DNA of 64,000 bases from an uncultured virus (IMG/VR IMGVR_UViG_3300032134_000001) (lineage: Duplodnaviria; Heunggongvirae; Uroviricota; Caudoviricetes), in the IMG/VR virus record IMGVR_UViG_3300032134_000001, one strand, 5' to 3'. The position numbers were made by a program, and so were the translations under genes. Every line of letters starts with the position of its first letter. Position 1 is the first letter of the stretch. Positions 1,653-62,071 of this stretch are shown here, piece by piece. The notes under the pieces are model-generated. The model saw nothing but the letters and a program-made list of their open reading frames with translations. It was not told the origin of the DNA and made no database searches.

Positions 1653-1707
1653 AGATTAGCGCAACCCCCTCTCTTGGGCCCGGTTCCGGGGGAATCCCGA
1701 GTGCTAC
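1653..1707 (-). promoter_or_regulatory. putative late promoter GTAGCAC(1707)...TAATCT(1658)
   Basis: 49-nt offset shared with nine other sites. Confidence 0.65.
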
Positions 1708-1730
1708 AAGAGGCTTCTCCTGCGTGCCAC

Positions 1731-1759
1731 TTGACACGCCAGAAGGCGTCCCCTACATG
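1731..1759 (+). promoter_or_regulatory. sigma70-like promoter TTGACA-N17-TACATG with overlapping GACAC-N8-GCGTC dyad
   Basis: Perfect -35, 17-nt spacer, imperfect -10, upstream of the HNH gene. Confidence 0.45.
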
Positions 1760-1785
1760 ACTCGGGAGGATGAGGAGGAGCGTCG

Positions 1786-2385
1786 ATGAGCCAATGGGTT
1801 GTTCCCACGACACGCTGGGCGATCTACCTGCGAGACGGCCTCTCGTGCGTCTACTGCCAGGTCACCCTGGCTGACATCCTGGCCGAGCGGGGAGAGAACT
1901 TCCTGACGCTTGACCACATCAAGTCGCGGAAGCAGGGCGGCTGCAACAGCCCCTACAACTTGGTGACCTGCTGCTACGTCTGCAACAGCCACAAGGCGCG
2001 CTACAGCGTCACCCGATTCTGCCGGGAGTTCAGTCTCACAGCGAGCACGGTGCGCTCTCGCATCAAGGCTCGCCGGGACCGGGACATCGACCAGTACCGG
2101 CTGGCTGCGAGGCTGCTTCTGGGCAAGGTCGACAGCATCCCGGGGGCGCTGATTGCCCAGGCGGTCATCGACCACGATTGGATCGTCAAGCGCCAGTGGG
2201 GGGACTCCTCTATCGACGGCGACTACTGGGAGCACCGCAAGACGCAGGAGGATCTCTTCTGCCCGACCTGCAATGCCTCGGGCGTCGCCCGCGGGGCTGG
2301 AGAGCTGGTTCTTCTGCCTGCTGTGGGGTGGGGAGAATCGGGTTCTTGCGAGCCGGCCTTGGATACGGCAGACATCCCCTTCTAA
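1786..2385 (+). CDS. HNH endonuclease (McrA-like, CxxC...DH...N...CxxCN)
   Basis: RDGLSCVYC...TLDHIKSRKQGGCNSPYNLVTCCYVCNSHK. Confidence 0.85.
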   Translation: MSQWVVPTTRWAIYLRDGLSCVYCQVTLADILAERGENFLTLDHIKSRKQGGCNSPYNLVTCCYVCNSHKARYSVTRFCREFSLTASTVRSRIKARRDRDIDQYRLAARLLLGKVDSIPGALIAQAVIDHDWIVKRQWGDSSIDGDYWEHRKTQEDLFCPTCNASGVARGAGELVLLPAVGWGESGSCEPALDTADIPF

Positions 2386-4938: not shown

Positions 4939-7900
4939 CCTACGACCCTGTAGCTCACGGCGCCCGGTGCTTCGAGTGTCCCTTGGAGGGATGCAAGGTC
5001 GTCCCCCCGGAGACTCGGGCGAGCGCGATCATCGCGGCGGTGGGCGAAGCTCCCGGAGAGCAGGAGGAGAAGCTGGGCAGGCCCTTCGTGGGTCCGTCTG
5101 GCAACGAGTTTATGAAGGCTGCTCGGATGGCCGGGCTCCGGCGCAACGACCTTCACATCACCAACGCGCTGCTCTGCCGGCCCCCGGGCAACGAGCTGAA
5201 GAAGCTCCTGGCGAAGATCAGCAAGTGGAACAAGAACGAGGCCAAGGAGGCGAAGGCTGAGGGCCGTGAAGCCTCGACGATGGCTACACCCCTGGCGTGC
5301 TGCAAGCCCCGCCTGGACGCGGAGCTGAGCCGCTTCAAGGACTTCATCACGCTGGGTGGGGTCGGGACCAGGGCGGTGGCCGGAACCCAGGGCTCCATCC
5401 TTGGGCTTCGGGGCGGGCTGATGGAGTTGGACCGCAACGAGTCCGAGGCTCGCAAGGCCTACGAGCAGGCCAACCCCCTCGTCGACTTCGCAGATGAAGC
5501 CTCACGCGAGGGGGTCGAGGCGGACTACCTCCAGTGGAAGAAGCAGAATGGGTACACCATCCGGGTGATGCCGACGGTCCATCCGTCCTTCGTGCTCCGG
5601 CAGCAGCGGTGGGCTCACGTCTTTCGCAACGACATGGCGAAAGCTGTTCGCTGGTTCCGGGGGGTCGCGAAGTGGATTCCACCCAAGGTCACCTACAACC
5701 CAGACCCTGAGACGCTGCGGCGCTTCTTGGCCAACCCGGACCGCATCTACACCTACGACATCGAGACCGACGGTATCGAGTGCTTGACGGCGCACATCCG
5801 CTGCATCGCCATCGGGGACGAGACTGACGTGGTGGTCATCGGCTTCCGGCGGAACTCTTGCCCGAAGAGCCAGAGTGGTGTCTTTGTCGACTTCTACGGA
5901 GGTCGGGACGCCTTCCTCATCGAGAAGATCCTGCGGGCCTTCTTCGAGGACGCGGCCATCGTGAAGGCTGGGCACAACGCCGGCTACTACGACCGCCTGG
6001 TGCTCCAGAACCAGATGGGCATTGACCCTCAGAACGTGCTCGACACGATGCTGCTTCACCGCAACGTCGAGTCGGAGTTGCCCCACAGCCTGGCCTACGT
6101 CGCGAGCATCTACACGGAAGCACCTTCCTGGAAGTGCTACGACCCCGAGACGGAGGTCCTCACGCAGGCCGGTTGGGTGAAGTTCCCTGAGCTGATGAAG
6201 GGTATGCCTGTGGCCCAGTGGGACGAGGGTGAGATCAGCTTCGTGGAGCCTCAGGCCTACGTGGACCAGCCCTACAAGGGCAAGGTCTGGGTGCTCAAGG
6301 ACCAGGCCACAGACCTGGTGCTGACTCCTGACCACGGGATGATCTACCGCCCGGCACACAACGCCAAGACCTGCCGCCCGGAGCACAAGAGCAAGCTGAA
6401 GCGGTGCATGGTTCAGGACCTCCCGAAGACCGGCTACCTGCCTCACGTCGGCACTCTCCAGAACGACACGCCCGTCTCTGAGAGGGCGGTGGCCTTCATG
6501 AAGCTGATCGCTGCCTTTCAGGCTGACGGCACCTGGATGTTCAAGAACGCCAAGGAGAAGGCGGAGGGCACCCCCTCCTACCTCGACTTCGGCTTCACGA
6601 AGCAGCGCAAGATCGACCGGCTGAAGGGGATTCTCGCTACCCTGGGGCTGCCCCACAAGGTGACGCAGACCGGCACGGTGAATCCCCGAACCCGCATCTG
6701 GGTGACGACCCACCCCGATGTTGCCCTGCTCTGGACTCACCTCGGCCCCGAGAAGCTCTTCGGCTCGTGGGTGCTTGCCTGGCCTCACGAGCTGCGGCGT
6801 CTCTTCCTCGACGAGCTGCCCCTCTGGGACGGTACGAAGGGCGAGCAGCACACCAACTACAACACCTCCGTCGAGGTGAACGCGGACTGGGTGCAGGCTG
6901 TAGCTGTCCTCTCGGGACAGGCTGCGCGCAAGCTCTTCCACGAGGGCATGTGGAGGGTCAGCTTGCCCAAGGGCAAGAAGCGACGGCGGGAGTGGTCGAA
7001 GCTGGAGAACCTGAAGCGGGAGGAGATCGACTACGACGGTCGGGTGTACTGCGTCTCTGTCCCTGCCGGGTTCCTTGTCGTAAGGCGAGGCTCAAAGGTC
7101 ACTATCGCGCAGAATACCGACCGTGAGGGCAACAAGCTGGCCCTGGGCGGTGAGTCCGATGAGGAGCTTCACGAGTACTGCGCCAATGATGTCGCCATCA
7201 CAGCGCGTGTCCTGTCTCCCCTGGCCGAGCAGGTCGCCCTGCGCAGTCAGAGCGCGGTCTGGCGGATGGACCAGCAGATGCAGCGCATCTGTGGCGACAT
7301 GCACACCGTCGGGATGTACGTCGATCAACCGAAGAGGCTGAAGGAGGAGAAGAAGCTCCTGGGCGTGCGGCACAAGCTGCTCAACGAGATCCGGGACCGC
7401 CTGGATCTCGGTGCGTTCAACCCAGGCTCTGTCTACCAGCTCCGCGATGTGCTCTTCAAGGGCTGGGGCTTGGAGAGCCACATCGACGCCACGGACCTGA
7501 AGGAGAAGGACGTCATGACGGGGGGTGGGGACCGCTCGACAGGCGACCTGATTCTGCGGACCCTGCTCACGCTCAAGACGGTGCCGGACGATCAGCGAGA
7601 GGTCATCAAGCTCATCCGGCGCTACCGCAAGTGCCTGAAGGTCCTCGGCACCTACGTCGTCAAGCTCCGCCCTTGGAACATGGGCGCGAACCTCGGCTGG
7701 GACGATGACGACGACTGGCTCGACCGGGAGACCCGCAAGAAGTACGGCGAGGAGAAGCGGGGCATCGTCGACCCGCGGACTGGCCGGATGCACCCTGGCT
7801 ACAATGCCCATGTTGCGGTCACAGGCCGGCTCAGCTCGTCGAAGCCCATCAACGCCCAGAACTTCCCCGCAGGGCAGCGCGGCATGGTGGTGGCCGCTCC

Positions 7901-8807
7901 TGGCCACGTCTTGGTCGGCGCCGACATGGACCAGCTGGAGCTGCGCATCGCGGCTGCGCTGTGGCGGGTTCAGCTCTACCTCACGGCCTTCGCGGAGAGC
8001 AAGGACCCCCACTCCATGACGGCCTTCGCGGTGTTCGGGGACGAGTTCTGCCGGGCTGCCGGTCTGACAGCCCACCAGTTCCAGCGCCCCGGCAAGCTCG
8101 TGAGTGGCTGCTACGACCCTTCCGGGGTCTTCCTGAAGGGGGCCAGTGCCGACGCCACAGCGATGCGGAACCTCTCCAAGGCCGTGCAGTACGCCAGCCA
8201 GTACATGGCCACGGTCGAGACGGTCCACCAGCTCATCCAGAAGACGGAGCTGCCCTCCGTGGACCCGGTGACGAAGAAGGCCCGGAACGACGGCACCACC
8301 GACCTTCCCTACGCCAAGCTGCCGCTGCGGCGCGTTCGCGAGATGCGCGAGAACTGGCTGACCGGGGCGCGAGAGTTCGAGTGGGGCTGGGAGAAGGAGA
8401 TCGACGAGTACCGCCAGCAGGGCTACCTCTGCGAGCCGGTCGGAGGTCGCAGAAGGGACTTCCTGGACGGGGAAGACCCCAACCAGATCGTCAACTTCAA
8501 GGTCCAGGGTGGCGCAGCCGGTCTCATGAACCGCGCCATCGTCCAGCTTGCTGACGCCATCCCGCTTCACAAGTGGGGGCCGGGGACAGGCATCAACAAC
8601 CAGTGTCACGACTCCATCGTCGTCGAGTGCCCTGCAGATGGGGCCGGTGTAGGCAAGGACGGAGAGATGGTCGTCCCGAAGGGCTCAATCCCCTGGAAGG
8701 TCGCCCGCTTGATGGAAGAGTGCATGAACCAGACCCACCCGAGCCTGCCTGGAGTTCTCTTCTCTGCGTCGGCCGACGTGGGCATGAGTTGGAAGGCAGT
8801 CGGATGA
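4935..8807 (+). CDS. polA: family A DNA polymerase with N-terminal family-4 uracil-DNA glycosylase domain, 3'-5' exonuclease and intein
   Basis: UDG: CFECPL, VGEAPG, RPFVGPSG, TNALLCRPP, HPSFVLR; Exo: YDIETDG, HNAGYYD, YCAND; Pol: TGRLSS, ADMDQLELR, RNLSKAVQYASQY, CHDSIVVE. Confidence 0.93.
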   Translation: MTYDPVAHGARCFECPLEGCKVVPPETRASAIIAAVGEAPGEQEEKLGRPFVGPSGNEFMKAARMAGLRRNDLHITNALLCRPPGNELKKLLAKISKWNKNEAKEAKAEGREASTMATPLACCKPRLDAELSRFKDFITLGGVGTRAVAGTQGSILGLRGGLMELDRNESEARKAYEQANPLVDFADEASREGVEADYLQWKKQNGYTIRVMPTVHPSFVLRQQRWAHVFRNDMAKAVRWFRGVAKWIPPKVTYNPDPETLRRFLANPDRIYTYDIETDGIECLTAHIRCIAIGDETDVVVIGFRRNSCPKSQSGVFVDFYGGRDAFLIEKILRAFFEDAAIVKAGHNAGYYDRLVLQNQMGIDPQNVLDTMLLHRNVESELPHSLAYVASIYTEAPSWKCYDPETEVLTQAGWVKFPELMKGMPVAQWDEGEISFVEPQAYVDQPYKGKVWVLKDQATDLVLTPDHGMIYRPAHNAKTCRPEHKSKLKRCMVQDLPKTGYLPHVGTLQNDTPVSERAVAFMKLIAAFQADGTWMFKNAKEKAEGTPSYLDFGFTKQRKIDRLKGILATLGLPHKVTQTGTVNPRTRIWVTTHPDVALLWTHLGPEKLFGSWVLAWPHELRRLFLDELPLWDGTKGEQHTNYNTSVEVNADWVQAVAVLSGQAARKLFHEGMWRVSLPKGKKRRREWSKLENLKREEIDYDGRVYCVSVPAGFLVVRRGSKVTIAQNTDREGNKLALGGESDEELHEYCANDVAITARVLSPLAEQVALRSQSAVWRMDQQMQRICGDMHTVGMYVDQPKRLKEEKKLLGVRHKLLNEIRDRLDLGAFNPGSVYQLRDVLFKGWGLESHIDATDLKEKDVMTGGGDRSTGDLILRTLLTLKTVPDDQREVIKLIRRYRKCLKVLGTYVVKLRPWNMGANLGWDDDDDWLDRETRKKYGEEKRGIVDPRTGRMHPGYNAHVAVTGRLSSSKPINAQNFPAGQRGMVVAAPGHVLVGADMDQLELRIAAALWRVQLYLTAFAESKDPHSMTAFAVFGDEFCRAAGLTAHQFQRPGKLVSGCYDPSGVFLKGASADATAMRNLSKAVQYASQYMATVETVHQLIQKTELPSVDPVTKKARNDGTTDLPYAKLPLRRVREMRENWLTGAREFEWGWEKEIDEYRQQGYLCEPVGGRRRDFLDGEDPNQIVNFKVQGGAAGLMNRAIVQLADAIPLHKWGPGTGINNQCHDSIVVECPADGAGVGKDGEMVVPKGSIPWKVARLMEECMNQTHPSLPGVLFSASADVGMSWKAVG
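6135..7115 (+). mobile_element. intein (327 aa) with LAGLIDADG homing endonuclease in the polymerase exonuclease domain
   Basis: N-terminal CYDPETEVLT, block B LTPDH, LAGLIDADG-like IAAFQADG and LDELPLWDG, block F VYCVSVP, ends AQN followed by +1 Thr. Confidence 0.9.
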
Positions 8808-9133: not shown

Positions 9134-9568
9134 ATGTCATCTGTCATGACCGCTACCCCAGCCACGCGACCAACGGCTGCTCCGCGCCTCTTGGTCTTCT
9201 TCCCGCGCGGGGTCTCTGAGGATGAGATCGAGGAGGGCTTTCACCTTGTCCGAGCGGCGACGGAGAAGACCGTCGAGCTGGTCGACAGCCTCGCCTGGTA
9301 CGACAGCCGCTTCGGTGCTTGTGGTGGTTGGGACTCCTGGGCACTGGAGGCCGTTACCGGCCGTAGCTACCGGCACAGGCGGGCCTACTTCGATGGCTTC
9401 ATCGTCACCGGCAGCGAGACTCTGACTCAGGGCACCGCAAAGGTCACTTCGCTCGCTCTGAGTGTCCACAAGCCCGTCTACTGGTTGGATGGGATCACGC
9501 TCAAGACAATCGCCAAGGTGACGTCCTCGGACGGCGGCTGGCACATTTCGACAGGAGAATCACCATGA
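9134..9568 (+). CDS. hypothetical protein
   Basis: ORF coupled by ATGA to the downstream HTH gene. Confidence 0.5.
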   Translation: MSSVMTATPATRPTAAPRLLVFFPRGVSEDEIEEGFHLVRAATEKTVELVDSLAWYDSRFGACGGWDSWALEAVTGRSYRHRRAYFDGFIVTGSETLTQGTAKVTSLALSVHKPVYWLDGITLKTIAKVTSSDGGWHISTGESP

Positions 9569-9789
9569 ACGACCAGGCGACCGAGACGGGGGGCACCACT
9601 TCCGCGAAGGCGATGGTCCTCCGGCTGATGGACGACGCCAGCATGACAGCGACCGAGATCAGCGAGGCCCTCGGGCAGCGCGTGTCCCGCCGCACCATCT
9701 ACCGTTGGGCCAAGGGTGAATCCGAGCCTCAGCAGACCAGCGATCTCGTGGAGCTGAGCAAGCTCTACGAACTGAAGTGTGCCTCTTGA
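9565..9789 (+). CDS. helix-turn-helix DNA-binding protein (Cro/XRE-like)
   Basis: MTATEISEAL...VSRRTIYRWAKGESEP. Confidence 0.8.
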   Translation: MNDQATETGGTTSAKAMVLRLMDDASMTATEISEALGQRVSRRTIYRWAKGESEPQQTSDLVELSKLYELKCAS

Positions 9790-11438
9790 ACGGGCAAGGC
9801 GAGCCGCTGGTCTACGCCAAGAAGGTGAAGTCCCCGCTCAAGGGCGGCGTCGACATCGAGCTGGGCCCGAAGACGGTGCTCTGCGGGCTCAATGGCACCG
9901 GCAAGACCGCCATCCTCCAGGCCCTCAAGCTGGGCACGCGAGGCTACGTCGATGACCAGGAGGGCAAGGACCACGTCAGCGCGACTGCAGCGATTGCACG
10001 GCTCTTCCCGCGCGGTGCAGCCCTGACCTCTCAGGTCGAGATGTCTGACGGCAAGGTCTTCACCTGGGCCTCCAAGAGGCGCGGCAAGGGCTTCACCAAG
10101 CCCAAGGCCACCTCCAAGGAACGCCCCTACAAGGTCGACTTTCCCTTCCAGGCAGTGAAGGCGCTGCTCTCCGGGGACGACGAGAAGATCCGGGCCTGGC
10201 TGGAGACGCGGGCAGGAAGCACCCTGACGGTCGACGACCTGATGGAGATGCTCCCGCCGGCGCAGCACGACGACGCCAAGGTCGCCCTGAAGCGCTTCGA
10301 CGAACGCTCCCCTGTGGAGCTGGCCGGAGCCCTCAAGGCCGAAGCTCGCACCCTCCGTGCCGGCGCCACGCGCCAGGAGAAGACCGTCGAGACGCTGGTG
10401 CAGGGCATCCCCCTCCCGCTCTCGGACGCCGAGGTCGAGGAGCTGACCGAGCGGCAGGAGGCCCTCTTCGCCCAGGCCAACCGGCCGGGCCTCATGAGCC
10501 CAGAGGGCCATAAGGCTCTCCGGGCGACCATCGGAGAGCTGGCCGAGGCCCTCGAAGCCGTGGACACGCAGATCGCGACGCTTCCTGCACTCCAGGAGGG
10601 CGAGGAGGAGACCTTCCGCATCGCCTCCAAGGGGCAGTCCCTGGCCCGAGAGCACCTGGAGCACCTCGGAACCGACACCTGCTACGTCTGCCTCCGCAAG
10701 GAAGCCGATGTTCAGGGCTCCTTCGACCGCTGGACCACCGTGCTTGGCGAACTCCAGGCCTCCAACTCCCGCCAGCGCCTCCAGGCGCAGTACGACAGCG
10801 GGCTGGCCGAGGTCCAGGGCCTCGCTACCCGGTACAAGACCGCGGAGGTCGTGGACAGCACGGCTGTCTGGGAGGAGCACGGCTCCATCAAGGCCACGCT
10901 GGCGACCCACCTCGCCAACAAGAGGATCTGGAAGCAGGCCGAAGGGCAGCGCAAGGAAGTGGCCGGCTCTCGGGCGACGGCCGACACCTGCGCGGCGCTG
11001 GCCCGCACCTGGGAGAAGGGGGGGAAGGAGCTTCTTCTTCAGCGCAAGAAGGCCTACGAGGACACCGTGACGAAGTGGCTGCCGGAAGGCGACATCTTCG
11101 TGCTGGACCTCGACGCCGGCCGCGTGGGCCTCACCCACGTCCTCTCCCCGAACGACGTCTACACCTCGCTCTCCGGGGCCGAGCTGTCTCGCGTGCTCCT
11201 GGCCGTGCTCTCGGCTGAGACCGAGGCGAGAGGTAGCACTCCGTCTATCCTCGAACCCGAGGACCGGGGCTGGGACCCTGCTACGTTGTCGGACGTGATG
11301 ACAGCCCTCACCGACTCCCCGGATCAGGTCGTCCTGATGAGCACCGTGCCCCCGAAGGGCATGGAGTTCAACAAGGACACGGGTGCCTTGACTGGAGAGC
11401 CGCCACAGGGCTGGAGCGTCCGCCACGTAGGTGCGTAA
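9777..11438 (+). CDS. Rad50/SbcC-like ABC ATPase with coiled coil and zinc hook
   Basis: Walker A GLNGTGKT, central CYVC, signature SLSGAE, degenerate Walker B ILEPED; start uncertain. Confidence 0.7.
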   Translation: MCLLNGQGEPLVYAKKVKSPLKGGVDIELGPKTVLCGLNGTGKTAILQALKLGTRGYVDDQEGKDHVSATAAIARLFPRGAALTSQVEMSDGKVFTWASKRRGKGFTKPKATSKERPYKVDFPFQAVKALLSGDDEKIRAWLETRAGSTLTVDDLMEMLPPAQHDDAKVALKRFDERSPVELAGALKAEARTLRAGATRQEKTVETLVQGIPLPLSDAEVEELTERQEALFAQANRPGLMSPEGHKALRATIGELAEALEAVDTQIATLPALQEGEEETFRIASKGQSLAREHLEHLGTDTCYVCLRKEADVQGSFDRWTTVLGELQASNSRQRLQAQYDSGLAEVQGLATRYKTAEVVDSTAVWEEHGSIKATLATHLANKRIWKQAEGQRKEVAGSRATADTCAALARTWEKGGKELLLQRKKAYEDTVTKWLPEGDIFVLDLDAGRVGLTHVLSPNDVYTSLSGAELSRVLLAVLSAETEARGSTPSILEPEDRGWDPATLSDVMTALTDSPDQVVLMSTVPPKGMEFNKDTGALTGEPPQGWSVRHVGA

Positions 11439-11828
11439 ATGGCTGTTCTGACTCTCCCGGCGGTTGGCTTCACGCTGACCATCCCCGACATCACCACCCT
11501 GGTGCGTTGCGACGACATCCAGTTCGGTGAGGCCGCTCAGGAGGTCCCGCCGAACTGCCGCACGGTCGTCATCTACAACATGGATGACACCAACCGCATC
11601 TTCATCCAGTGGAACCCGACCACGGAGGTCAACCCGAACTCGATGACGGTGCTCAACAGCACGGTCATCCCGACCCTCTCCAGCATGACCTTCGCGATCG
11701 GCTACCTGGGTGATCGGCCGAACCTGGCAGGGCGGCTCGACGTCTGCCTCTTCCTCATGGCCGAGACCGGCGTGAACGTCGATGTCAACATCACCTACCT
11801 GATGGGCCGCGGGACGCAGCTGCTGTAG
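11439..11828 (+). CDS. small beta-rich protein, possible virion component
   Basis: Beta-strand pattern (RTVVIYN, RIFIQW, VDVNITY). Confidence 0.5.
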   Translation: MAVLTLPAVGFTLTIPDITTLVRCDDIQFGEAAQEVPPNCRTVVIYNMDDTNRIFIQWNPTTEVNPNSMTVLNSTVIPTLSSMTFAIGYLGDRPNLAGRLDVCLFLMAETGVNVDVNITYLMGRGTQLL

Positions 11829-51940: not shown

Positions 51941-52399
51941 CTACTTGAGCTGCGCCTGGAGGAGGCGGCGCTGCATCTTCTCAGTCTTGGTCTTCTGGCG
52001 GACGTAGTTGCCAATGAGCAGGGCAGTCAGGGCACCTGCCGCGAGCAGCACAGCGCCGCTGATCTTGCCCGCCTGGGTGGTGATGACCGCAGCCCTTTCC
52101 TCCCCGACCAGCTCTTCGAGCGCCCGGATCTCGGCCTGGAGGGACCGGATCTTCATCGCGTAGATGTTCCGCAGGAAGGAGCTGGGCGCCTTGTTGTACA
52201 TGTTGGTGTAGTTGGCGAGCGCCGCCTTCTTCTTCTCGTACTTCTCGCGCGGGTCACCGCCGAAGAGGAGAGCCGAGATGGCCGGAGCGTACTGCTCCAG
52301 AGCCTGTGCGGCCTGCTGCTGACTGCCGCCGTCCGCGGCCTCATCTGCACCGTAGGCACCGGCCACGTCGCCATAGTCGCTGGGGATGAAGTGGCTCAT
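51941..52399 (-). CDS. membrane protein, FIPS leader + DYG/AYG
   Basis: MSHFIPSDYGDVAGAYG; C-terminal TM. Confidence 0.7.
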   Translation of the reverse strand: MSHFIPSDYGDVAGAYGADEAADGGSQQQAAQALEQYAPAISALLFGGDPREKYEKKKAALANYTNMYNKAPSSFLRNIYAMKIRSLQAEIRALEELVGEERAAVITTQAGKISGAVLLAAGALTALLIGNYVRQKTKTEKMQRRLLQAQLK

Positions 52400-52866
52400 T
52401 CGTACTCGTCCTCGTACTCATAGTCGTAGTCGTCACTGCCGCCGCGACGGACTGCGACGACCGCTGCTGCGATGAGGCCCACGGTCATGAGGACCCCACC
52501 CACAACGAGGAGAGTCTTGGTGGTGCCGAGGCTCGCGACGGCAGCAGCAGCGCGGTTCGCTGCACCCTGAGCCAGCGACTGTTCGGTCTGGAGAGCCAGC
52601 AGCTTCTCCTGCTGCTTCGCGAGCTTCTGCTCGTGCTTCTGCTGTGACTTCAGCGCGGAGGCCTGGAAGCCCATCGTGATGCCAGTCGAAGCCAAGGCGC
52701 CGACGGCGGAGATCCCCGCAGCCCAGGCGTCAGCCTTGGCTCCCGCAGCTTGGGCCTGCGCCAGCTCTGTCTGTGAGGGCTGGCCGATCGTAGTCGCGTT
52801 GAACAGCTCCTCGGTGGGGTTCCGAAGAGCGTTGGCGCCCGAGTAGGGGGAAGGCTGGAAGCTCAT
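52396..52866 (-). CDS. tail-anchored membrane protein, FQPS leader (paralogue of 52863..53249)
   Basis: MSFQPSPYSG..LRNP; SQQKHEQKLAK...LQTEQ. Confidence 0.7.
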   Translation of the reverse strand: MSFQPSPYSGANALRNPTEELFNATTIGQPSQTELAQAQAAGAKADAWAAGISAVGALASTGITMGFQASALKSQQKHEQKLAKQQEKLLALQTEQSLAQGAANRAAAAVASLGTTKTLLVVGGVLMTVGLIAAAVVAVRRGGSDDYDYEYEDEYE

Positions 52867-53249
52867 TCTTCGTAGTCCTCCTCGTAGGTAGGCGGGCGGC
52901 GGTTGATGACGATGGCCCCCGCGATCATGCTCACCCCGACGAGGACCGCGGCGACGAGGAGGAGGGTCTTCTTGGACCCCCCTTCTTCGAGAACCCCAGC
53001 CGCCCGTGTGGCGGCCACCTGGGCCTCAACCTGCTCGGTCTGGAGACGGATCAGCTCCTCTTGCGCCTTGGCCAGGCCCTTCTCGTGCTTCTGCTGAGAC
53101 GCTTGGGCCTTCTTCCCGGCCGACACGCTGATGCCCGTCGCAGCAAGCTGACCAGCGACACCGATTGCCACTCCTACGACCTGAGCCCAGCCGTAGTCCC
53201 CGGAGTCCGAAGCAGGCCCCGAGTATGCCGATGGCTCGAAGGCCCGCAT
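52863..53249 (-). CDS. tail-anchored membrane protein, FEPS leader + DYG
   Basis: MRAFEPSAYSG...GDYGW; SQQKHEKGLAK...LQTEQ. Confidence 0.7.
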   Translation of the reverse strand: MRAFEPSAYSGPASDSGDYGWAQVVGVAIGVAGQLAATGISVSAGKKAQASQQKHEKGLAKAQEELIRLQTEQVEAQVAATRAAGVLEEGGSKKTLLLVAAVLVGVSMIAGAIVINRRPPTYEEDYEE

Positions 53250-53252
53250 CCG

Positions 53253-54068
53253 CTACTCCTCGTAGTCGTCGTCATCGTCTCGCGTGGCCAGGTACACCCC
53301 GCCGCCGATCAGGCCGAGGACCACGACGCCGCCGATGATGACACCCCAAGGGGCTCCGCCTCCGCCCGTGTCCTCGTAGGTCTCCTCCTCGAAGGTGAGG
53401 TCTTCCTGCGGGCCGAGGATGGACATGAGAGAGGGGAGGAGCTGGGCCGCAGCAGCGCCGATGCCCGCTCCGATGCCCGCACCTGTCGCTGCACTCTTGG
53501 TGGAGCTGGACGAGCTGCCGGAGGAGCCGCCACCCATGAGACTGGCGAGGAAGGAGTTGGCACCACTGCTGGAACCCCCCGCGTCTCCGGGGTGGTCGCC
53601 GTACCACTTGGCGACCTGCTTGGCGCCGGCGTGCGTCGGACCCCAGTGATCGCCCGTGTACTTCTGGCCCTTGGGGCCCACCACGTCCACGGAGTTGTCA
53701 GGGTGCTGCTTGTAGGTGTAGCCGTCGCCCGTGCCTGAGAGCAGGCGAGGCTCAGCCGGAGCCGAGGACGCACTGCTCGTGGAGCTGCTCTTGTCCTTCT
53801 TCCCGAACAGGTTCGCGAAGAAAGCGGTCTGGTCGGTCTTGTCCGCCTTCCGGTCTTCCTTCTTCTGGGCCTTCGCCTCGGCGGCTTCGAGCTTCTCCTC
53901 GTCCGTCTTCTTCTTGAAGATGTCGAAGAGACCGTCGTAGTCGTCCGGGTTGTGGATCGCCTCCATGGTCGGAGCATCCTCACCGACGCGCTGCTGCACC
54001 TTGCCCGGAAGATCGCCAAAGCCGGGCGGGAGGAAGTCCGAGGAGATGCTGCCGAAGTTGTCGTTCAT
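53253..54068 (-). CDS. tail-anchored membrane protein with DNFG/DYDG leader
   Basis: MNDNFG...HNPDDYDGLFDIFKKK; C-terminal TM then acidic tail. Confidence 0.7.
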   Translation of the reverse strand: MNDNFGSISSDFLPPGFGDLPGKVQQRVGEDAPTMEAIHNPDDYDGLFDIFKKKTDEEKLEAAEAKAQKKEDRKADKTDQTAFFANLFGKKDKSSSTSSASSAPAEPRLLSGTGDGYTYKQHPDNSVDVVGPKGQKYTGDHWGPTHAGAKQVAKWYGDHPGDAGGSSSGANSFLASLMGGGSSGSSSSSTKSAATGAGIGAGIGAAAAQLLPSLMSILGPQEDLTFEEETYEDTGGGGAPWGVIIGGVVVLGLIGGGVYLATRDDDDDYEE

Positions 54069-54331
54069 GATGCGTCCTGCCCACCTGTCAGGTTGATGAT
54101 GACCCCGGCCAGGAAGCGCGAGGCCGCCACAGCTGTGTCGTGGTCGAGCATGGGCTTCCCGCCGACCTTCGGGTTCCACCCCTCCATCTTCCCATGGATG
54201 AACAGGGACAGGATCTCAGGCGAGACCTCTGCGCCAGTCGCCCTGAGCATGACGTAGTGGTCCATCCCTTCCTTGAAGTAGGCGCCCAGCTTGGTGAGCG
54301 CGGGGAGGAGAGAGCCGAAGGACACCGCCAT
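54065..54331 (-). CDS. hypothetical protein
   Basis: Coupled to both neighbours. Confidence 0.55.
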   Translation of the reverse strand: MAVSFGSLLPALTKLGAYFKEGMDHYVMLRATGAEVSPEILSLFIHGKMEGWNPKVGGKPMLDHDTAVAASRFLAGVIINLTGGQDAS

Positions 54332-54333
54332 GA

Positions 54334-55092
54334 TCAGCGCCTGCGCAGGAGGAGATAGAGAACACCGACGCCACCAGCGATGACGATGGGGTTCTTGTAC
54401 CAGACCTCGCCTTCCTCGTTGGTGTAGCCGTCCAGCTCGTCGATGTGCTCGTCGAGCGTGGCGAGTGCCTTGTTGGCGTACTCGGGCACGTCCTCCAGGG
54501 AGAACTCGGAGGGGGCGAACTCGGGGTGAGGCTGGTCCTCGGAGGCGGCCTCAACGGCCTCCACCTCCGCGGGGGTGGCCGCAGGAGGAGGCTGGCCGCC
54601 CTCTTCCTCTTCGGTGAGGGCCTCCTGCTCCTGGCCGACCGGGTTGGCCACAGCCCGCTTCCAACCGCGAGGACCGGACTTCACCAGCGTGAGGTCCGGC
54701 TTCCGGGTCGGGAGCGGCGCTGCCACGCCCGTCTGAACCTGCTGGAGCTGTGCAGCAGCCAGCATCTCGTTGAGGGTCTTCGCTTCCTGGCGTAGTTGGA
54801 GCCCGATCTGCCGTCGGCGCTTCCCTGCCGTCTTCGAGAAGAGGGTGGTGAGGCCACGCACCTTCCTCCGCTGGCTGGCGATGTCAGCGCTGAGCTGGTC
54901 GGTCGGCTTGTAGTAGTGCAGGGACGCCTTGAGAGCCGCGATCTCGGTCAGCAGCACGCCGTTTCGCGCCTTGATGGCAGGACGACGGGGCGACGCCGGA
55001 GACAGCTTTCGCAGGATGCCGCGGTTGCGGGACACCTGGGCCTGGCGCTCCGCGATGTTGCGCTTGGTGACGATGAGAGTAGCAGAAGCCAC
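54334..55092 (-). CDS. basic/acidic bipartite tail-anchored protein
   Basis: Basic N-half, VANP, acidic C-half, WYKNPIVIAGGVGVLYLLLRRR. Confidence 0.7.
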   Translation of the reverse strand: MASATLIVTKRNIAERQAQVSRNRGILRKLSPASPRRPAIKARNGVLLTEIAALKASLHYYKPTDQLSADIASQRRKVRGLTTLFSKTAGKRRRQIGLQLRQEAKTLNEMLAAAQLQQVQTGVAAPLPTRKPDLTLVKSGPRGWKRAVANPVGQEQEALTEEEEGGQPPPAATPAEVEAVEAASEDQPHPEFAPSEFSLEDVPEYANKALATLDEHIDELDGYTNEEGEVWYKNPIVIAGGVGVLYLLLRRR

Positions 55093-55113
55093 GAGAGCCC
55101 TCCGTAGACTTCC

Positions 55114-55168
55114 TGTGTACCCCTTCGGCCCTCTGGCGGGAAGCCGGGGGCGCCAGACGCGGTGCTAC
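55114..55168 (-). promoter_or_regulatory. putative late promoter GTAGCAC(55168)...TACACA(55119)
   Basis: 49-nt offset; shares GTAGCACCGCGTCTG with the 62071 site. Confidence 0.65.
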
Positions 55169-55470
55169 AAGGAGTCGCCACTCTCCCTGTATTGGAGCAG
55201 GTCCCACGTCGCCTCTCCGAGGTCGGCCGCGAGCATCAGGTTGCCGTCTACCGCACACTCTGCCATCTGGCGGCGAAGCTCGGTAGCCACCTCTTCCGTG
55301 GACACCTCCGTCTGGTCCAGGAGAGCGATGCGGGCCTTCAGCCTCTTGCGGAGGAACTCTGCGACCTCGCGCTTGGTGTGGTCGTAGGTGACCTCACCGT
55401 CATCGACCCAGGGAGCCGAGGCTCCGAGGAAGGGCAGCTTGTCTCGCGCAGCGGCCATCTCAGCCGCCAT
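55165..55470 (-). CDS. hypothetical protein
   Basis: ORF whose TAG lies within the GTAGCAC box. Confidence 0.45.
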   Translation of the reverse strand: MAAEMAAARDKLPFLGASAPWVDDGEVTYDHTKREVAEFLRKRLKARIALLDQTEVSTEEVATELRRQMAECAVDGNLMLAADLGEATWDLLQYRESGDSL

Positions 55471-55536
55471 AGCCGCAGCCGTAGCCGCAGAGCCAAATGT
55501 GGTGACAGGTGGTGCCAGTCATGCTACCCCTCCTCC

Positions 55537-56148
55537 GTGAAGATCTGTACGTTTGCCGGGTGTGGCCGAAAGCATCAAGCCCTTGGCCTCTGCCAAGCGC
55601 ACTGGAAGCAGCAGCGCAAGGGCACGCCCTTGAAGCCGGTCGGGTGGCGGCTGGGGCCCAACGCTGTTGTGGAAGACGGCGACCGTTGCTGGCTCATCCT
55701 CACAGACATCCACGGTAGGGAGGTGGCCCGAACCTGCATCGACAGGGCGGACCGCGAACAGGTCTCTGCCCACCGCTGGAAGCTCAACGACAGGAAGACG
55801 AGGTACGTCGCTACACTGACGGGAGGAAAGAAGCAGTACCTCCATCGCTTCCTGATGCAACCCCCCGAAGGGTTCGAGGTGGACCACTGGGACAAGGACA
55901 CCCTCAACAACTGCCGCGCCAACCTGAAGGTCGTCGAGCCGCACCTCAACAAGCAGAACGTCTCCCGCCTCAACAACCTCCCCCGAGGCGTGAGCTACCG
56001 GGCCGACCGGGCCAACAGCAAGCCCTGGGTGGCCCGCGTGGTAACCGGAGGCAAGACCTACCGAGAGCACCACCCCACACAGGCTGAAGCAGAGGCAGCG
56101 GCCCTTCGCCTGAGAGCCCTTCACCTCACCCACTCCAACGAGGTGTAG
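55537..56148 (+). CDS. HNH endonuclease with AP2-like C-terminal domain
   Basis: CTFAGC..GLCQAH; YLHRFLM...VDH...LNNCRANL; RGVSY...WVARV...AEAAA. Confidence 0.8.
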   Translation: MKICTFAGCGRKHQALGLCQAHWKQQRKGTPLKPVGWRLGPNAVVEDGDRCWLILTDIHGREVARTCIDRADREQVSAHRWKLNDRKTRYVATLTGGKKQYLHRFLMQPPEGFEVDHWDKDTLNNCRANLKVVEPHLNKQNVSRLNNLPRGVSYRADRANSKPWVARVVTGGKTYREHHPTQAEAEAAALRLRALHLTHSNEV

Positions 56149-59500: not shown

Positions 59501-60990
59501 AAGCAGGCCTCGCGAGCAACCCGCGCCGGGTTCCCCCACAGGAGGGCCTCGCCCAGGGCGATCATGTTGCGGACAGGCTCCACCGTGGGGTTGTTGCCCG
59601 AGATGCGGTAGCCCTCCGTCTGCCCGCGCGGACCGGTAATGACGATGGCGACGGGTACGCCGCCCGTCAGGGAGCGGGTGACCTTGGGCATCGCCCGATA
59701 GAAGGTGGGGTAGACCTTCTTCCCGCGCCAAGCACCCTGCGCACCCTCCCAAGCAACCAGCAGACCGGAGAGGGACGGAGCACCCCGGGCTCCCGGTCCC
59801 GCAGAGTCCCCGCACTGCTTCCTGATCGCAGTCGTGAAGTTGTCCCAGTGCTTGTTGCCCCGCTGAAGGACCGCACCCACGCTGGACTTGCTGCCCGGCA
59901 GAATCTTGATGGTGCCGCTGCTGTACTGCCGACAGTTGTACCCCTGGACGTTGGGGCAGTCCTGGAAGGCTGCGCCGAAGGCGGCCTGGATGGCCTCAGT
60001 CCAGCCGATGGGCGCCAGGACCTCCTCGTAGAAGCCGAAGCGAGGGGGGAGTTCCCCCATGCGGTCCTGGTCCTTCGCTGCATGGTCCTTGCGGAACTTC
60101 CGCCACTTCGGAGACTCGGGGTTGCGCTGGCCTTCATGCCGACGCACGAGGTTCTCGTCCCCCTCGTCGAGGTTGAGGAGGAGCAGCTTTCGGGCGTACT
60201 CCGGGGGGATGTGAAGCGGGATGCCATCGACCACGACCCCACCCACGAGGGCAGTGATCGCTTCGATCTGCGTTGCTGCCTTCTCGATGATGGCACTGAC
60301 CTCGGGCAGGTCGGACATCCACACCAGCACACTCATCACGTACCGCTTCGCGAAGCCTGGGTTGATGGGCAAGACGTAGAGGTCGAGGTTCGTCGCGTCT
60401 GCACAGGAAGGCAGGAGGGGCCCGGTGGCACGAACCTTGGCGCCCTCAGGCGGAGCCCGGAAGAACTCGTAGATGGTGTTCCCGGCTCGATGGTTTTCCA
60501 GCTCGACTCCGGGAGGCGGAGTCATCCCGTACACGCGCACGAAGAACCACTCCAGCGGTGTGTCCTTGCTCACCACGGCTGACCGGACCACCTCGCCCTT
60601 CTCGATGCCCAGCAGCTGCGCGTTTCGGGAGGGCTCAGAGAGGAACCGCAGCCCGCCTGCCTTCAAGGCGTCGTAGGCCTTCTTGTTCGTGGAGAACATC
60701 GGGGCGAGCCCCGCGGCCTTGGCCTGATCGAGTCGGGGCTGGCGCTTCTTCTGGGCTGCGACCTTCTCACGCAGCTTGTGCCGGTCGAAGAGGAGTGGGT
60801 CGCGCTCTGCGGTGAGGCGCTTCTTCTCCGGCTTGTTCTTGGCCTGGCGGGCAGCTTGGAGCTGCTCGTTCAGGTCCTTGATGCGCTCTTCCAGCGCGAG
60901 GAGGTCCTTCTCCAAACGGCTGAGGCCGGGGTTCCTGCGGGACCGGAGCCGGCGCGGAGCCTTGACCCTGATGGGACGGCGTCGACTCAC
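56581..60990 (-). CDS. 1469-aa protein of unknown function with RRNP leader and internal KNP-Arg-RDNP linker
   Basis: MSRRRPIR...RSRRNPG; IKNPRRRRRGRRPRRSRGRSRDNP; GTGA-coupled to the protease gene. Confidence 0.75.
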   Translation of the reverse strand: MSRRRPIRVKAPRRLRSRRNPGLSRLEKDLLALEERIKDLNEQLQAARQAKNKPEKKRLTAERDPLLFDRHKLREKVAAQKKRQPRLDQAKAAGLAPMFSTNKKAYDALKAGGLRFLSEPSRNAQLLGIEKGEVVRSAVVSKDTPLEWFFVRVYGMTPPPGVELENHRAGNTIYEFFRAPPEGAKVRATGPLLPSCADATNLDLYVLPINPGFAKRYVMSVLVWMSDLPEVSAIIEKAATQIEAITALVGGVVVDGIPLHIPPEYARKLLLLNLDEGDENLVRRHEGQRNPESPKWRKFRKDHAAKDQDRMGELPPRFGFYEEVLAPIGWTEAIQAAFGAAFQDCPNVQGYNCRQYSSGTIKILPGSKSSVGAVLQRGNKHWDNFTTAIRKQCGDSAGPGARGAPSLSGLLVAWEGAQGAWRGKKVYPTFYRAMPKVTRSLTGGVPVAIVITGPRGQTEGYRISGNNPTVEPVRNMIALGEALLWGNPARVAREACFLLPPIVLKGMGLTKTEITGTKDYERLLALSPLSPMTHFRALAAKMDFPDQASLARAQELLVTPPRFFQSTPRAEWISFFGEIPQVQAWPGVYYNIVKWGFKQGIDRTAISGWMEDHDQHLHHYREIGDGAEITMAGAEFGSQRRTIESFTVDRPGGREQLRVHHLTPCAWAEVDFSQNLLDGTPGAGMVIPTRLVIFRRSRGGAVIPQLVYDLQEIREDHIEAWVDKPKKYVAPLRAKVMLINTALAIDEAKKVEDTGENPIMSPGAIRALLRAKALPLGSEQWFLALPRSESAAMLETLEQIPGRKGEEPLVRVKREVVWDDSYSPFYGSPALIPRVARDLLRVGVSTVGVPHLVPVPPDAAQPAIPARSEKARGTPARPASPPWTSQAAPYLFLSLPVRMKGGDGKWHTRMMRPGEDPVPNGYLNAYLRAFKFSPRSETQKGAVQAVVEGAEIEGKREKRGRPTEATRVATKRGFKGSGFYWLAAEVVKDLRLGRLTTTPTDQEVLYAAMRPAWPLIVQRMNEGLEDDEKLSPAMPFPFRAGQPGDPQLEREALAALEALMDPEDGELEVLFTEDDLIHPARYGLTGEDAETMGDFFHPDVQGVVHGIKNPRRRRRGRRPRRSRGRSRDNPWSRDERDRVAAWAARDEELGDVSFSRPKTNEEMFSAVEEVYPRAASQRALRTQDRLDALAVSEQDLFGSFRPGAVDPERDKTLRQAILSGALKLTEEDQAYLARHADLSLVEGKRILDERRRSKRRASMVTPSGALCKMYRNAARLKGYSPMLPVARPGTAWILVGPPVKEDGLTRVMAFRNGGYVDCDMLVPANQPLSFFLGKAIQGMVMWLAEKQIRTIRMAGGVHLGLIGSAQTRQLWRPGDHLDVQAMLKKAYSGEVTTHLVAADEAGRPDAHVLARDRAQVDFKNYAARQKKVAPPSSYPQYRRTKEAAVGDAAATGLSAPTLDLSDLSALEDE

Positions 60991-61997
60991 GCCTTCTTCA
61001 CTCGGAGGCCCAGTCGCGGCCGGATGTAGTCGAGGAAGAGCTGGGTCGACACGGAGATGACCACGCCCGTCACGACGGCAGGCAAGATCTTCTTCACGTC
61101 CAGGAGGGTGGCCTTGGCCTTCTGCTCCGGGGTCCAGTCATCTTCCCAGGCCCAGGACGACTTGCCGGGCTGGTCTTCCAGCTCCATCGCCATGCTCGCG
61201 CCGACTGCAGCACCGATGGGGCTCAGAGCCGACTGCCCGTAGTCCGTGCTGTGTTGGCTGGGCTGGAATGAGCCATAGGCCACGTCGTAGGCGGGGCTGG
61301 TGTTCTCGACAGCAGGCAGGCCCCGAGGCCGGAACCCGCGGGGGGCTCGCTTCGACTTCACGATCCGGGGCTTCCCGCGTGGTGCGCTGTCCATCTCAGG
61401 GAGGTAGCTCTTGTGGCCGGAGATGACATCCCAGCCGAGGGGCACGCCCTGCACCGTGGTCTCGCAGTAGTACCAGCGGGTCGGGTTGAACGGGGGCGTG
61501 CCGACCATGCAGTAGATGTGCGCCCACTTGCAGCCCTTGGGGAAGGCCTTGCCCTCGATGTGACGGACCTTCTTGCCGTTGCAGGTACCGCCCAGAACCA
61601 GCTTCCAGGGCAATCTCACGGACTCGAAAAGCGCGGTCAGGACCAAAATCTGGTCGTCGCAATCCCCCCAACCCTGCTTGATTGTGAAAATCGGGTCCTG
61701 GAGACGCTCCCCCGGTTCGTTCACATAATAGATGTTCTTGGGGTCTTGGACCCACTTCAGCAAGGCTGCAGCCTGCTTCTTGTACTCGCGCGGCTTGGCT
61801 TTCGACTTCTTGATGATGTCGACGGCGAGGCTGGCGATGCGGGGGTCTCGCCCACGCATCATGGCGATGTGCCTGATGATGGCCAGGCGCTTGGGGTCCT
61901 CGTAGCCCTTCCAGTCAGGAAGGTGGTGAACCTCCGTCCCGGCCAGGTCCAGGGCATTGAGCCGGGCAGGAAGCTGTTCGACAGGCAGACGAGACAA
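60987..61997 (-). CDS. transglutaminase-like cysteine protease (candidate virion maturation protease) with C-terminal hydrophobic helix
   Basis: YVNEP..E.LQDP, GDCDD, AHIY, WYYCETT (Cys-His-Glu); start moved to TTG 61997 after GGAGG and the -10 box. Confidence 0.8.
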   Translation of the reverse strand: MSRLPVEQLPARLNALDLAGTEVHHLPDWKGYEDPKRLAIIRHIAMMRGRDPRIASLAVDIIKKSKAKPREYKKQAAALLKWVQDPKNIYYVNEPGERLQDPIFTIKQGWGDCDDQILVLTALFESVRLPWKLVLGGTCNGKKVRHIEGKAFPKGCKWAHIYCMVGTPPFNPTRWYYCETTVQGVPLGWDVISGHKSYLPEMDSAPRGKPRIVKSKRAPRGFRPRGLPAVENTSPAYDVAYGSFQPSQHSTDYGQSALSPIGAAVGASMAMELEDQPGKSSWAWEDDWTPEQKAKATLLDVKKILPAVVTGVVISVSTQLFLDYIRPRLGLRVKKA

Positions 61998-62016
61998 GGT
62001 GCTGACCTCCGCCGTC

Positions 62017-62071
62017 ACTCTACCGGCGCAGTCCTTGCCGGGCACTCATCTCGGCGCAGACGCGGTGCTAC
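62017..62071 (-). promoter_or_regulatory. putative late promoter GTAGCAC(62071)...GTGCCC...TAGAGT(62022)
   Basis: 49-nt offset. Confidence 0.7.

Follow-up and report, generated by a model that had tools for sequence, protein, structure and literature searches.

The locus described here raises the question of what reads a short asymmetric DNA element, GTAGCAC (the box), that recurs at a fixed distance from a TANNNT-like hexamer along 64,000 nucleotides of an uncultured Caudoviricetes virus (IMG/VR record IMGVR_UViG_3300032134_000001; this whole 64-kb stretch is called the window). A preliminary description had listed ten sites at which the first base of the box lies 49 nt before the first base of the hexamer, and had interpreted them as an activator-dependent late regulon served by a sigma70-type host RNA polymerase. 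When re-read on the sequence, all ten coordinates and hexamers are correct: box 1707 with TAATCT at 1658, 16358 with TACCCT at 16309, 16314 with TAGGTT at 16363, 19415 with TACACT at 19464, 19790 with TAGGCT at 19839, 24204 with TACTTC at 24253, 44562 (GTAGCCC) with TAAGGT at 44513, 49147 with TACCCT at 49098, 55168 with TACACA at 55119, and 62071 with TAGAGT at 62022; two of the hexamers (TACTTC and TACACA) are TANNN(C/A), not TANNNT. Nine further sites were found, at 11233+, 13420+, 18830−, 32524+, and 38421− with the same +49 offset, at 19043+ with +48, at 13464− and 30935+ with +59, and at 23470+ with +60. The window is therefore described as carrying about twenty copies of a predicted bipartite promoter, and we regard it as probable, with moderate confidence, that these are sigma-70-type promoters dependent on a factor bound to the box, which would together form a regulon.

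The exact heptamer occurs 15 times on the two strands of the window, against a mean of 3.54 (maximum 11) in 100 dinucleotide-preserving shuffles, none of which reaches 15. TANNNT begins exactly at +49 in 8 of these 15 sites, and the next offset in the range 7–119 has 2. The composite GTAGCAC-N42-TANNNT is matched 8 times versus 0.00 expected and, with one mismatch allowed, 15 times versus 0.58 expected (maximum 3). The other exact heptamers are those at 6140(−), antisense within the polymerase gene and without a hexamer, at 24255(−), the mirror of 24204, and at 47867(−), part of a double box. Literature searches for GTAGCAC together with promoter and phage, or with late promoter and bacteriophage, found no description of the motif among the papers listed, and the heptamer in the excerpt of PMC5587285 is a chance occurrence.

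The anatomy of the module was derived from a gapless alignment of 21 sites with the +49 spacing, 15 from the window and 4, 1, and 1 from the relatives G001, L006, and L021 described below; the rows were chosen for a box and for TA at +49. Information is confined to box positions 0–7, 10, 11, and 13, to positions 27–28, and to the T, A, and final T of the hexamer. The extended box has the consensus GTAGCAC-TCCGTCT, of which the extension is softer; with rows chosen in this way the T and A of the hexamer are invariant, and 17 of the 21 rows keep its final T. The −35-like element, n(T/G)GcCc, is weak: it has T in 10 and G in 8 of the 21 sites at position 27 and G in 15 at position 28, which correspond to positions 2–3 of a −35 hexamer separated from the −10 by 17 bp, and TTGACA is absent from it. 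The context of the hexamer is enriched for G at −16 and −14. Three particulars of the preliminary description were likewise borne out: (T/G)(G/T)GCCC stands 17 nt before the hexamer at five sites (1707, 19415, 19790, 44562, and 62071), GTAGCACCGCGTC is common to 16358, 55168, and 62071, and at 19415, 19790, 55168, and 62071 the upstream open reading frame (ORF) has its stop codon in the TAG of the box. A consensus scan of 11000–25000 found no promoter of the TTGACA/TATAAT type.

Box and hexamer are co-oriented with the downstream gene, and past the hexamer there is always either a start codon preceded by a Shine-Dalgarno sequence or an ATG 5–7 nt away. The second, leaderless geometry is seen at P19415 (19415–19469, +; sites are named by the first base of the box), where a box whose TAG is the upstream stop is followed by TGGCCC, TACACT, and, after 6 nt, the ATG at 19476 (MAGRPLRRARR...), at P19790 (19790–19844, +), which has the same arrangement with TGGCCC, TAGGCT, and, again after 6 nt, the ATG at 19851 (MAGRPRRRARR...), and at P30935 (30935–30999, +; GCAGCACTCGAACT, TACGAG), where the ATG at 31005 of a 107-aa product (MARTRRNPRG...) is 5 nt past the hexamer. 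The remaining sites have a GGAGG-type ribosome-binding site and a start codon within 15–80 nt, as at P18830 (18776–18830, −; GTGGCACTCCGTCT with GTGGCAC, GTGCCC as the −35-like element, TACTCT at +49, GGAGG, GTG 18757) and P62071 (62017–62071, −; GTAGCACCGCGTCT, GTGCCC, TAGAGT, GGAGG, TTG 61997), which lies upstream of 336-aa and 1444-aa proteins and whose position indicates that the TTG, not an upstream GTG, is the start. The distance from box to hexamer is fixed, whereas the gap between hexamer and start codon ranges from 5 to about 150 nt, so that the constraint falls on the DNA, not on the message. This layout fits transcription starting 6–8 nt past the hexamer; the numbering used here assumes a start 7 nt past it, so that the box would extend from −61 to −48 relative to predicted +1 positions.

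A possibility that bears directly on this geometry is that a long inverted repeat (GTAGCAC...GnGCTAC), with the box as one arm and the hexamer region as the other, forms an RNA or DNA hairpin, which would serve, for example, in processing or termination instead of as a promoter. The G residues at −16 and −14, the mirror pairs 24204/24255 and 11233/11284 and the G001 pair GTAGCAC-N28-GTGATAC, and the pairing of 61% of alignment cells at slide 0, as against at most 48% at other slides, are what such a hairpin would produce. The pairing shows no covariation, however: 61.2% of cells are paired versus 60.7% in shuffles (200 of 500 as high), there is one double change, and box variants are uncompensated. 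RNAalifold returned no consensus structure (0 pairs), so that an RNA stem between box and hexamer was rejected; neither the final T conserved in the hexamer nor the (T/G)G of the −35-like element falls within any stem, and the start codon distance varies while that between box and hexamer does not. We consider a hairpin very improbable. Other ways of accounting for the repeats were also discarded. A repeated mobile cassette does not fit spacers that are unrelated, the pair 19043/19415 excepted, and the box does not act as the −10 of a divergent promoter, T being found at the sixth position on the other strand in 0 of 14 sites. A sigma-54 promoter (TGGCAC-N5-TTGC; GG at −24, GC at −12) does not match, as 19 of the 21 boxes have TAGCAC, with A in place of G at the key position, TTGC does not follow 5 nt later, and the hexamer 49 nt away would be left unexplained; more generally, a sigma-54 or extracytoplasmic-function sigma promoter at the box is contradicted by the lack of GG/TTGC and of any conserved −35-like element upstream of the box.

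The spacing could be followed into three relatives: G001, an IMG/VR contig of 41,099 bases (63.6% GC), L006, a metagenome contig of 10.1 kb (58% GC), and L021, a contig of 3.5 kb from a metagenome-assembled genome. G001 is colinear with the window from 2.4k to 51k, with amino acid identities of 25–66%, the L006 proteins are 33–56% identical to the matching window proteins, and the 193-aa protein behind P44562 has a counterpart in L021 that is 81% identical. As the preliminary description had expected of related genomes, the spacing is retained: box, spacing, and syntenic position are kept in these three while the spacer diverges. P55168 (55114–55168, −; GTAGCACCGCGTCT, TACACA, GGAGGG, GTG 55092) is syntenic with L006:2089, which has ATAGCACTCCACTT and TATCCT at +49. 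P44562 (44508–44562, −; variant box GTAGCCCTCCATGT, GTGCCC, TAAGGT, ATG 44473) is syntenic with L021:872, where the 14-mer box is identical and TAAGCT stands at +49, and with G001:32587, which shares the rare variant GTAGCCCTC and has its hexamer at +50 or +61. P32524 (32524–32578, +), located within ORF 31328–33667, has GCAGCACTCCGTCT (GCAGCAC) and TACACT at +49; with its homologue G001:24856 it shares GCAGCACTCCG and a perfect hexamer (TATACT at +49 in G001), about 600 nt before a conserved C-terminal domain. P16314 and G001:15697 are syntenic, as are P11233 and G001:9792, and P30935 and its syntenic counterpart G001:23421 each precede a leaderless M-x-R-x-RRNP gene. When the window is aligned with L021, 23 identical bases over the box are followed by CGTGCC and then by GGTCCrGTAAGsT, with divergence between these blocks, a pattern that reads as a classical footprint. 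In three pairs with the same spacing, 7-mer identity is 20/21 and hexamer identity 12/18, as opposed to 32/105 in the spacer and 14/60 in each flank, but the figures for box and hexamer are partly due to construction, which weakens the case; because the sites in the relatives were found by motif search, the independent evidence consists of synteny and of a spacer length that is unchanged despite sequence turnover.

Wider searches added little. L003, a fourth relative, contains no intergenic stretch of interest. IMG/VR scans with the 424-aa and 333-aa proteins yielded either nothing or relatives of about 30% identity without the motif, and a second IMG/VR scan (query A3) returned G001 again. 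Among the four loci from a metagenome scan, L006 alone is long enough to inform, and of two GTDB scans the first found nothing and the second only the 3.5-kb L021. When IMG/VR was scanned for the extended box together with the hexamer, 5 loci were returned; they lie in contigs of 33–45% GC that contain no further sites, and were taken as chance.

The offsets that depart from +49 differ from it by whole helical turns. Among the 11 exact GTAGCAC sites of G001, TANNNT is at +39 in 3 and at +49 in 2, and among 91 sites with one mismatch it is at +39 in 5 and at +49 in 4, the next offset having 2. In the window the main offset of 49 is accompanied by 48 at P19043 (19043–19096, +; GTGGCACTGGCCTG, TACATC), which drives 19137–19418 and whose spacer is paralogous to that of P19415, by 59 at P13464 and P30935, and by 60 at P23470 (23470–23535, +). 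The last has GTAGCACCCGGATT within the 3′ end of an ORF with a cpYpsA domain, TACTCT at 23530–23535, and an ATG at 23557, and each of the +59 and +60 sites precedes a gene start. No class is found at half-turn offsets, in agreement with a factor required to lie on the polymerase side of the helix. This phasing recalls promoters of the class I/II CRP type, in which an upstream site (here with centers near −48, −58, and −68) compensates for a weak −35. The CRP site itself is a 22-bp palindrome centered at −61.5 or −41.5, whereas the box is a non-palindrome of 7–14 bp. The CRP-like position of −61 proposed in the preliminary description applies only to the first base of the box and not to its center, which lies near −58 for the 7-mer or −54.5 for the 14-mer.

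Some boxes also occur in mirror pairs. At 24201–24258 the arrangement GTAGCAC-N38-GTGCTAC (24204+/24255−) places TACTTC rightward before five tandem paralogues, and the leftward hexamer, TACACC, would fire antisense. GTAGCAC-N38-CTGCTAC is formed by 11233 with GTAGCAG at 11284−, and GTAGCAC-N28-GTGATAC by G001 9792/9833, so that one mirror pair is conserved at a syntenic site although the spacing class differs. P11233 itself (11233–11287, +; GTAGCACTCCGTCT, TACGTT at +49) lies within the 3′ end of the AAA/SMC-like ORF 9786–11438. A double box, GTAGCAC-N5-GTAGCAT (47849–47867, −), with no hexamer at +49, occupies the divergent gap between the 81-aa gene 47891–48136 (+) and the 681-aa gene 45714–47759 (−), and GTAGCAG-N5-GTAGCAC is found at the syntenic place in G001 (38458). 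The 81-aa gene runs against the direction of the surrounding block; its product is 63% identical in G001, and its start region holds the double box, inverted, and a conserved GTGCTACAAAC. By eye the N terminus of this protein, LLRVRIRR..., has the look of a ribbon-helix-helix strand, which no family match supports.

In the mirror pairs the box lies over the opposite −10, an arrangement that would suit a repressor operator. Stoperators of L5-like mycobacteriophages are asymmetric sites of about 13 bp, scattered, oriented with transcription, and often located at gene ends; if the boxes were operators of this kind for a phage repressor, they would silence the units in a lysogen. The boxes are similarly asymmetric, dispersed, and co-oriented with transcription, they overlap an upstream stop at the four window sites already named and at G001:9792, G001:33120, and L021:872, and a tyrosine recombinase is encoded at 27337–28161. 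On the other hand, stoperators have no fixed distance from a −10 and block the polymerase, and the rigid 49-bp distance with one-turn variants would be unexpected for blocks to elongation. The box of the main class is upstream of the −35 and −10 and not over them, the absence of a good −35 calls for activation, and no repressor gene was identified in the window. Operators of this type are accordingly judged improbable.

In the favored reading, of sigma-70-type promoters dependent on a box-bound factor, a sigma-70-type RNA polymerase, probably that of the host, would recognize the TANNNT −10 and the weak −35, and the poverty of the latter means that the polymerase would need a box-bound protein. 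That protein would exert its effect from the same helical face in each register, with the center of the box near −58 in the main one and one turn closer (+39, in G001) or further (+59 to +61) in the minor ones. Transcription would start 6–8 nt past the hexamer, and the mRNA would either have a short leader containing a GGAGG-type site or begin, leaderless, at the ATG. The regulon would include the lysis cassette and a long (−) block of mostly unassigned and often membrane-anchored proteins, and the replication and recombination genes would lie outside it, on TTGACA-N17 promoters. What the sequences show is the motif with its significance, geometry, and conservation, and the presence of two promoter classes; the start sites, the polymerase, whether there is an activator and where it comes from, and late timing are elements that we infer.

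The promoter sequence is relevant to the identity of the polymerase. Corynebacterial extended −10 elements favor G at −16 and −14, as do the hexamers here. According to the excerpt of PMC6448022, SigA of M. smegmatis prefers a TANNNT −10 without a −35 consensus and many of the mRNAs are leaderless, and Deinococcus is rich in leaderless mRNAs according to that of PMC4007540. The window promoters resemble these actinobacterial and Deinococcus SigA promoters in TANNNT, in having little of a −35, and in a start that would fall on the A of the ATG about 7 nt past the hexamer (PMC6448022 and PMC4007540, both in part), and differ from them in the conserved upstream box. Alternatively, box and hexamer could be the two parts of a promoter read by an RNA polymerase or sigma-like factor encoded by the phage. 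Room for such a protein exists, because the 1518-aa, 1444-aa, and most other proteins belong to no recognizable family and more than 100 kb of the contig lies outside the window. Known promoters of single-subunit phage polymerases are compact and do not contain a 42-bp gap like that between box and hexamer, and Pfam scans of 73 + 24 window ORFs and 42 G001 ORFs detected no RNA polymerase or sigma domain. TANNNT, the 17-bp distance to (T/G)G, and the leaderless geometry are moreover the signature of a sigma-70-family holoenzyme, as far as the excerpt of PMC6448022 goes. A phage polymerase or sigma factor of this kind is considered decidedly improbable.

The principle of activating phage late promoters from an upstream site is already textbook, and there are well-known cases in which a phage late activator binds upstream and makes contact with the α subunit of the polymerase (PMC3152322, in part). 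The closest analogue is the P2 Ogr system, of which the window promoters are not members. In the excerpts of PMC3152322 and PMC3931495, the late promoters of P2, 186, and P4 (Ogr/B/Delta) have a poor −35 and an element near −55, and a small phage activator contacts the α subunit of the host polymerase. The window promoters share with them dispersal over the genome and a poor −35, the 14-nt box being centered near −54.5. However, the P2 element is a dyad, TGT-N12-ACA, whereas the box is asymmetric and orientation-specific and the dyad is not conserved in the 21 sites; the present promoters also differ in their high-GC setting, in registers displaced by one helical turn in either direction, and in some leaderless units. 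The Ogr/Delta zinc finger family is not among the Pfam matches of the 97 window and 42 G001 ORFs. T4 MotA binds a box that is centered near −30 and replaces the −35, whereas the box here spans −61 to −48 in the main class and, for the +39 sites of G001, about −51 to −38. Other phage activators bind at −30 to −55 (Mu C), −58 to −104 (phi29 p4), and −22 (P1 Lpa), and staphylococcal RinA is a further example, according to the excerpt of PMC3152322. With all of these the window promoters have in common that a phage element and the host polymerase would define a temporal class, and they differ in position, sequence, and symmetry, none having a 7-mer 49 nt before TANNNT.

The distribution of the box over gene classes bears on timing. 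Of the seven exact copies of TTGACA in the window, the two that are intergenic both form TTGACA-N17-TAnnnn and precede replication genes. TTGACA-N17-TACATG (1731–1759, +) lies before the HNH gene 1786–2385 without a co-oriented (+) box, the box of P1707 being 24 nt upstream on the opposite strand, and CAGTTGACACTCTCG...TAGTAG (2428–2456, +) lies before the Sak4-like gene. Both are kept in G001, at 13 and 1328, where CAGTTGACACTCTCG is almost identical before its Sak4-like gene. Lysis genes, by contrast, stand behind boxes. P13464 (13400–13464, −; GTAGCACCCCATCT, with TATGCT at 13400–13405) is upstream of 12991–13377, of the endolysin gene 12164–12991, and of a gene for a protein with two transmembrane segments at 11829–12170, together a lysis cassette; the lysis enzyme of G001 is of a different family (Phage_lysozyme, E = 8e-18) in a different place in the genome and is behind a +39 site at 20895. 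The presence of lysis genes behind box promoters and of replication genes behind TTGACA supports a separately timed class, which is probably late to judge from gene content. The regulon proposed in the preliminary description thus stands with respect to the promoter module, its phasing, the separate TTGACA class, and the lysis genes; that the polymerase is of the host and not of the phage is something that we infer. The statement that all sites precede virion-like or tagged genes could not be upheld, as most of the downstream proteins have no Pfam or PHROG family match. No structural family match was found for the proteins behind P44562, P49147, P55168, and P62071, and no capsid, portal, terminase, or tail family was recognized anywhere in the window. 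Searches of PDB sequences with four large proteins gave no match, an ESM Atlas search with the 681-aa protein gave only weak virus-labeled leads (best 0.84), and an AlphaFold2 model of the conserved 193-aa protein has a mean predicted local distance difference test score (pLDDT) of 42.9.

The same division between classes enters into the question of whether the box is read by a component of the host, either a transcription factor whose site has been copied or the polymerase itself through a UP-like element or an alternative sigma factor; there would then be no phage activator, and the class need not be late. Apart from one small helix-turn-helix (HTH) protein, no candidate phage activator was found in 64 kb, and the box is kept in relatives of 58–64% GC, which would be the outcome if a single conserved host protein were exploited by all of them. 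Known UP elements are A/T-rich, however, and the box is not, and the sharp split between box (lysis, unassigned block) and TTGACA (replication) suggests a switch timed by the phage. A host reader is on balance thought unlikely. The small protein (9565–9789, +) is a 74-aa product of the replication block with an HTH_23 domain (27 bits versus a cut-off of 24.6), conserved in G001 at 7940–8149 (30 bits); it is a candidate box-binding protein and nothing more.

Several observations weigh against promoters that depend on a box-bound activator. The 74-aa protein is the only clear DNA-binding protein in the window. In G001 the composite pattern has 4 matches versus 1 for the reversed pattern, and the 11 copies of exact GTAGCAC equal the largest count in 100 simple shuffles (mean 4.85). 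The +59/+60 class of the window comprises three sites, one of whose hexamers (TACGAG) ends in G. At five of the +49 sites the last base of the hexamer is C or A, not T (13420, 24204, 38421, 55168, and the mirror-strand 24255), at the +48 site 19043 it is C, and three sites (11233, 32524, and 38421) are inside ORFs. It should also be noted that a pure activator model offers no explanation for mirror pairs that place a box over the opposite hexamer, nor for the double box before the 681-aa gene, which has no hexamer at the class distance; that the hexamer context G-n-G-C-TAC partly mirrors the box; and that two strong matches to the box, at 59608(+) and 6140(−), lie antisense within genes and lack a hexamer.

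The remaining sites show the same organization. P1707 (1653–1707, −) has the box GTAGCACTCGGGAT (1694–1707), GGGCCC as the −35-like element, and TAATCT (1653–1658), with the ATG of gene 1020–1616 located 36 nt past the hexamer. P13420 (13420–13474, +; GCAGCACTGCGTCT with GCAGCAC, TAGAAC at +49) would drive the (+) gene at about 13513–13914 and is back-to-back with P13464 (GCAGCAC-N31-GTGCTAC), and P16314 (16314–16368, +; GTAGCACTGGAAGA, TAGGTT), driving 16396–17178 (MARRTRTNPF...), is back-to-back with P16358 (GTAGCAC-N31-GTGCTAC). The latter (16304–16358, −) has GTAGCACCGCGTCG, TACCCT, the ribosome-binding site GGAGGTGAG, and the ATG at 16288 of 15014–16288 (MAGRPLR...). P38421 (38367–38421, −; GCAGCACTCGAACA with GCAGCAC, TACAAC at +49), which is regarded as a candidate, lies in the 3′ end of the 1518-aa ORF and upstream of 37315–38298, and P49147 (49093–49147, −) has GTAGCACTCGACCT and TACCCT before the ATG at 49068 (MRFQPSPYS...). 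In one of the DNA runs (X2) the summed contig depth is 41 over 16011–16511, a segment that covers the divergent promoter (16289–16395) and the starts of the tagged genes, and about 7 elsewhere, from which it appears that other contigs in that sample share this short stretch.

Two N-terminal tags recur among the proteins of the window. An Arg-rich tag with RRNP or RTNP is found in many box-driven genes, several of them leaderless (MAGRPLRRARR..., MARRTRTNPF..., MARTRRNPRG..., and MSARRNPIW...); the genes are 15014–16288(−), 16396–17178, 17888–18199(−), 19476–19793, 19851–21068, 23557–24198, 25854–26210, and 31005–31328, with G001 15796 and 23482, and the tag may be a shared targeting or nucleic acid-binding peptide. 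The second, M-x-FQPSPYS, begins the consecutive (−) proteins of 48140–53249 (those at 48140, 48511, 50939, 51941, 52396, and 52863; degenerate in 49864), most of which end in a hydrophobic C-terminal helix, and is kept in L003 at 120–600 (FQPSSHS, FQPSPYS). Many proteins of the (−) block as a whole, 35338–62000, have a single C-terminal hydrophobic segment and a tail-anchored look. The five tandem paralogues behind P24204, of 118–128 aa, occupy 24339–26210 (+), and three similar small paralogues, two with box promoters of their own, are at 32635–33808 (−) in G001. The late block contains inserted HNH-type endonuclease genes whose positions differ between the two genomes, 55630–56148 (+) in the window and 33896–35686 (−) in G001, the latter fused to a DNA methylase domain. 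A terminator-like GC-rich hairpin repeat, CCCCCGACC-TTTC-GGTCGAGGG, adjoins box sites at G001 32535–32600 and 35700–35760 (L012 5386 and 8513–8565).

The window is part of a novel phage-like genome from marine metagenomes. The DNA runs that contain the stretch are labeled marine or seawater metagenomes, and no RNA run is listed as containing it; contigs from three of the DNA runs were identical or fragmentary and had no variant positions in the promoters. A megablast of 45000–56000 against 50,697 phage records found no near-identical record, and an identical 333-aa protein (50939–51940) is on record in a contig of 167,369 bases, from which it follows that the window is under half of the genome. 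Its GC content is 64–68% throughout (66% is the figure adopted for the interpretation). Besides the HNH endonuclease, the Sak4-like ATPase, the SMC-like AAA protein, and the tyrosine recombinase mentioned above, it encodes an SNF2 helicase, one tRNA-Arg, and a family-A DNA polymerase whose N terminus carries a UDG domain, and the endolysin consists of PG_binding_1 and a weak CHAP match. No PHROG family was matched by 63 of 73 window ORFs and no Pfam family by 53 of 73, and no Rfam family besides tRNA was found. The polymerase (4983–8807, +) contains an insertion of about 324 aa (residues ∼385–708), which its 876-aa G001 homologue lacks. This insertion is probably an intein; its matches are to PHROG families labeled ribonucleotide reductase and PhoH-like and may reflect inteins within those families. 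The ORF of 22444–23526 (+), whose C-terminal cpYpsA (SLOG) domain is matched with E = 1.7e-33, overlaps (−) ORFs favored by a simple gene caller.

A broader interpretation, which is advanced tentatively and is itself doubtful, is that one orientation-specific factor activates from three helical registers (centers at about −48, −58, and −68), that a second copy over the −10 at mirror sites could later shut off or redirect transcription, and that this is the master switch of an undescribed lineage of large marine high-GC phages. If this were so, the genes driven by the box would encode mostly tail-anchored membrane proteins and Arg-rich leaderless products, and not recognizable virion proteins. 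The rigid 49-bp spacing and its whole-turn variants lead to clear predictions about transcription starts, spacer insertions, and binding by the small HTH protein. The promoters provide a ready map of about twenty putative transcription units in a lineage whose proteins are nearly all unannotated, and they allow its genes to be divided, without expression data, between a TTGACA class for replication and a box class that comprises lysis and the unassigned block.

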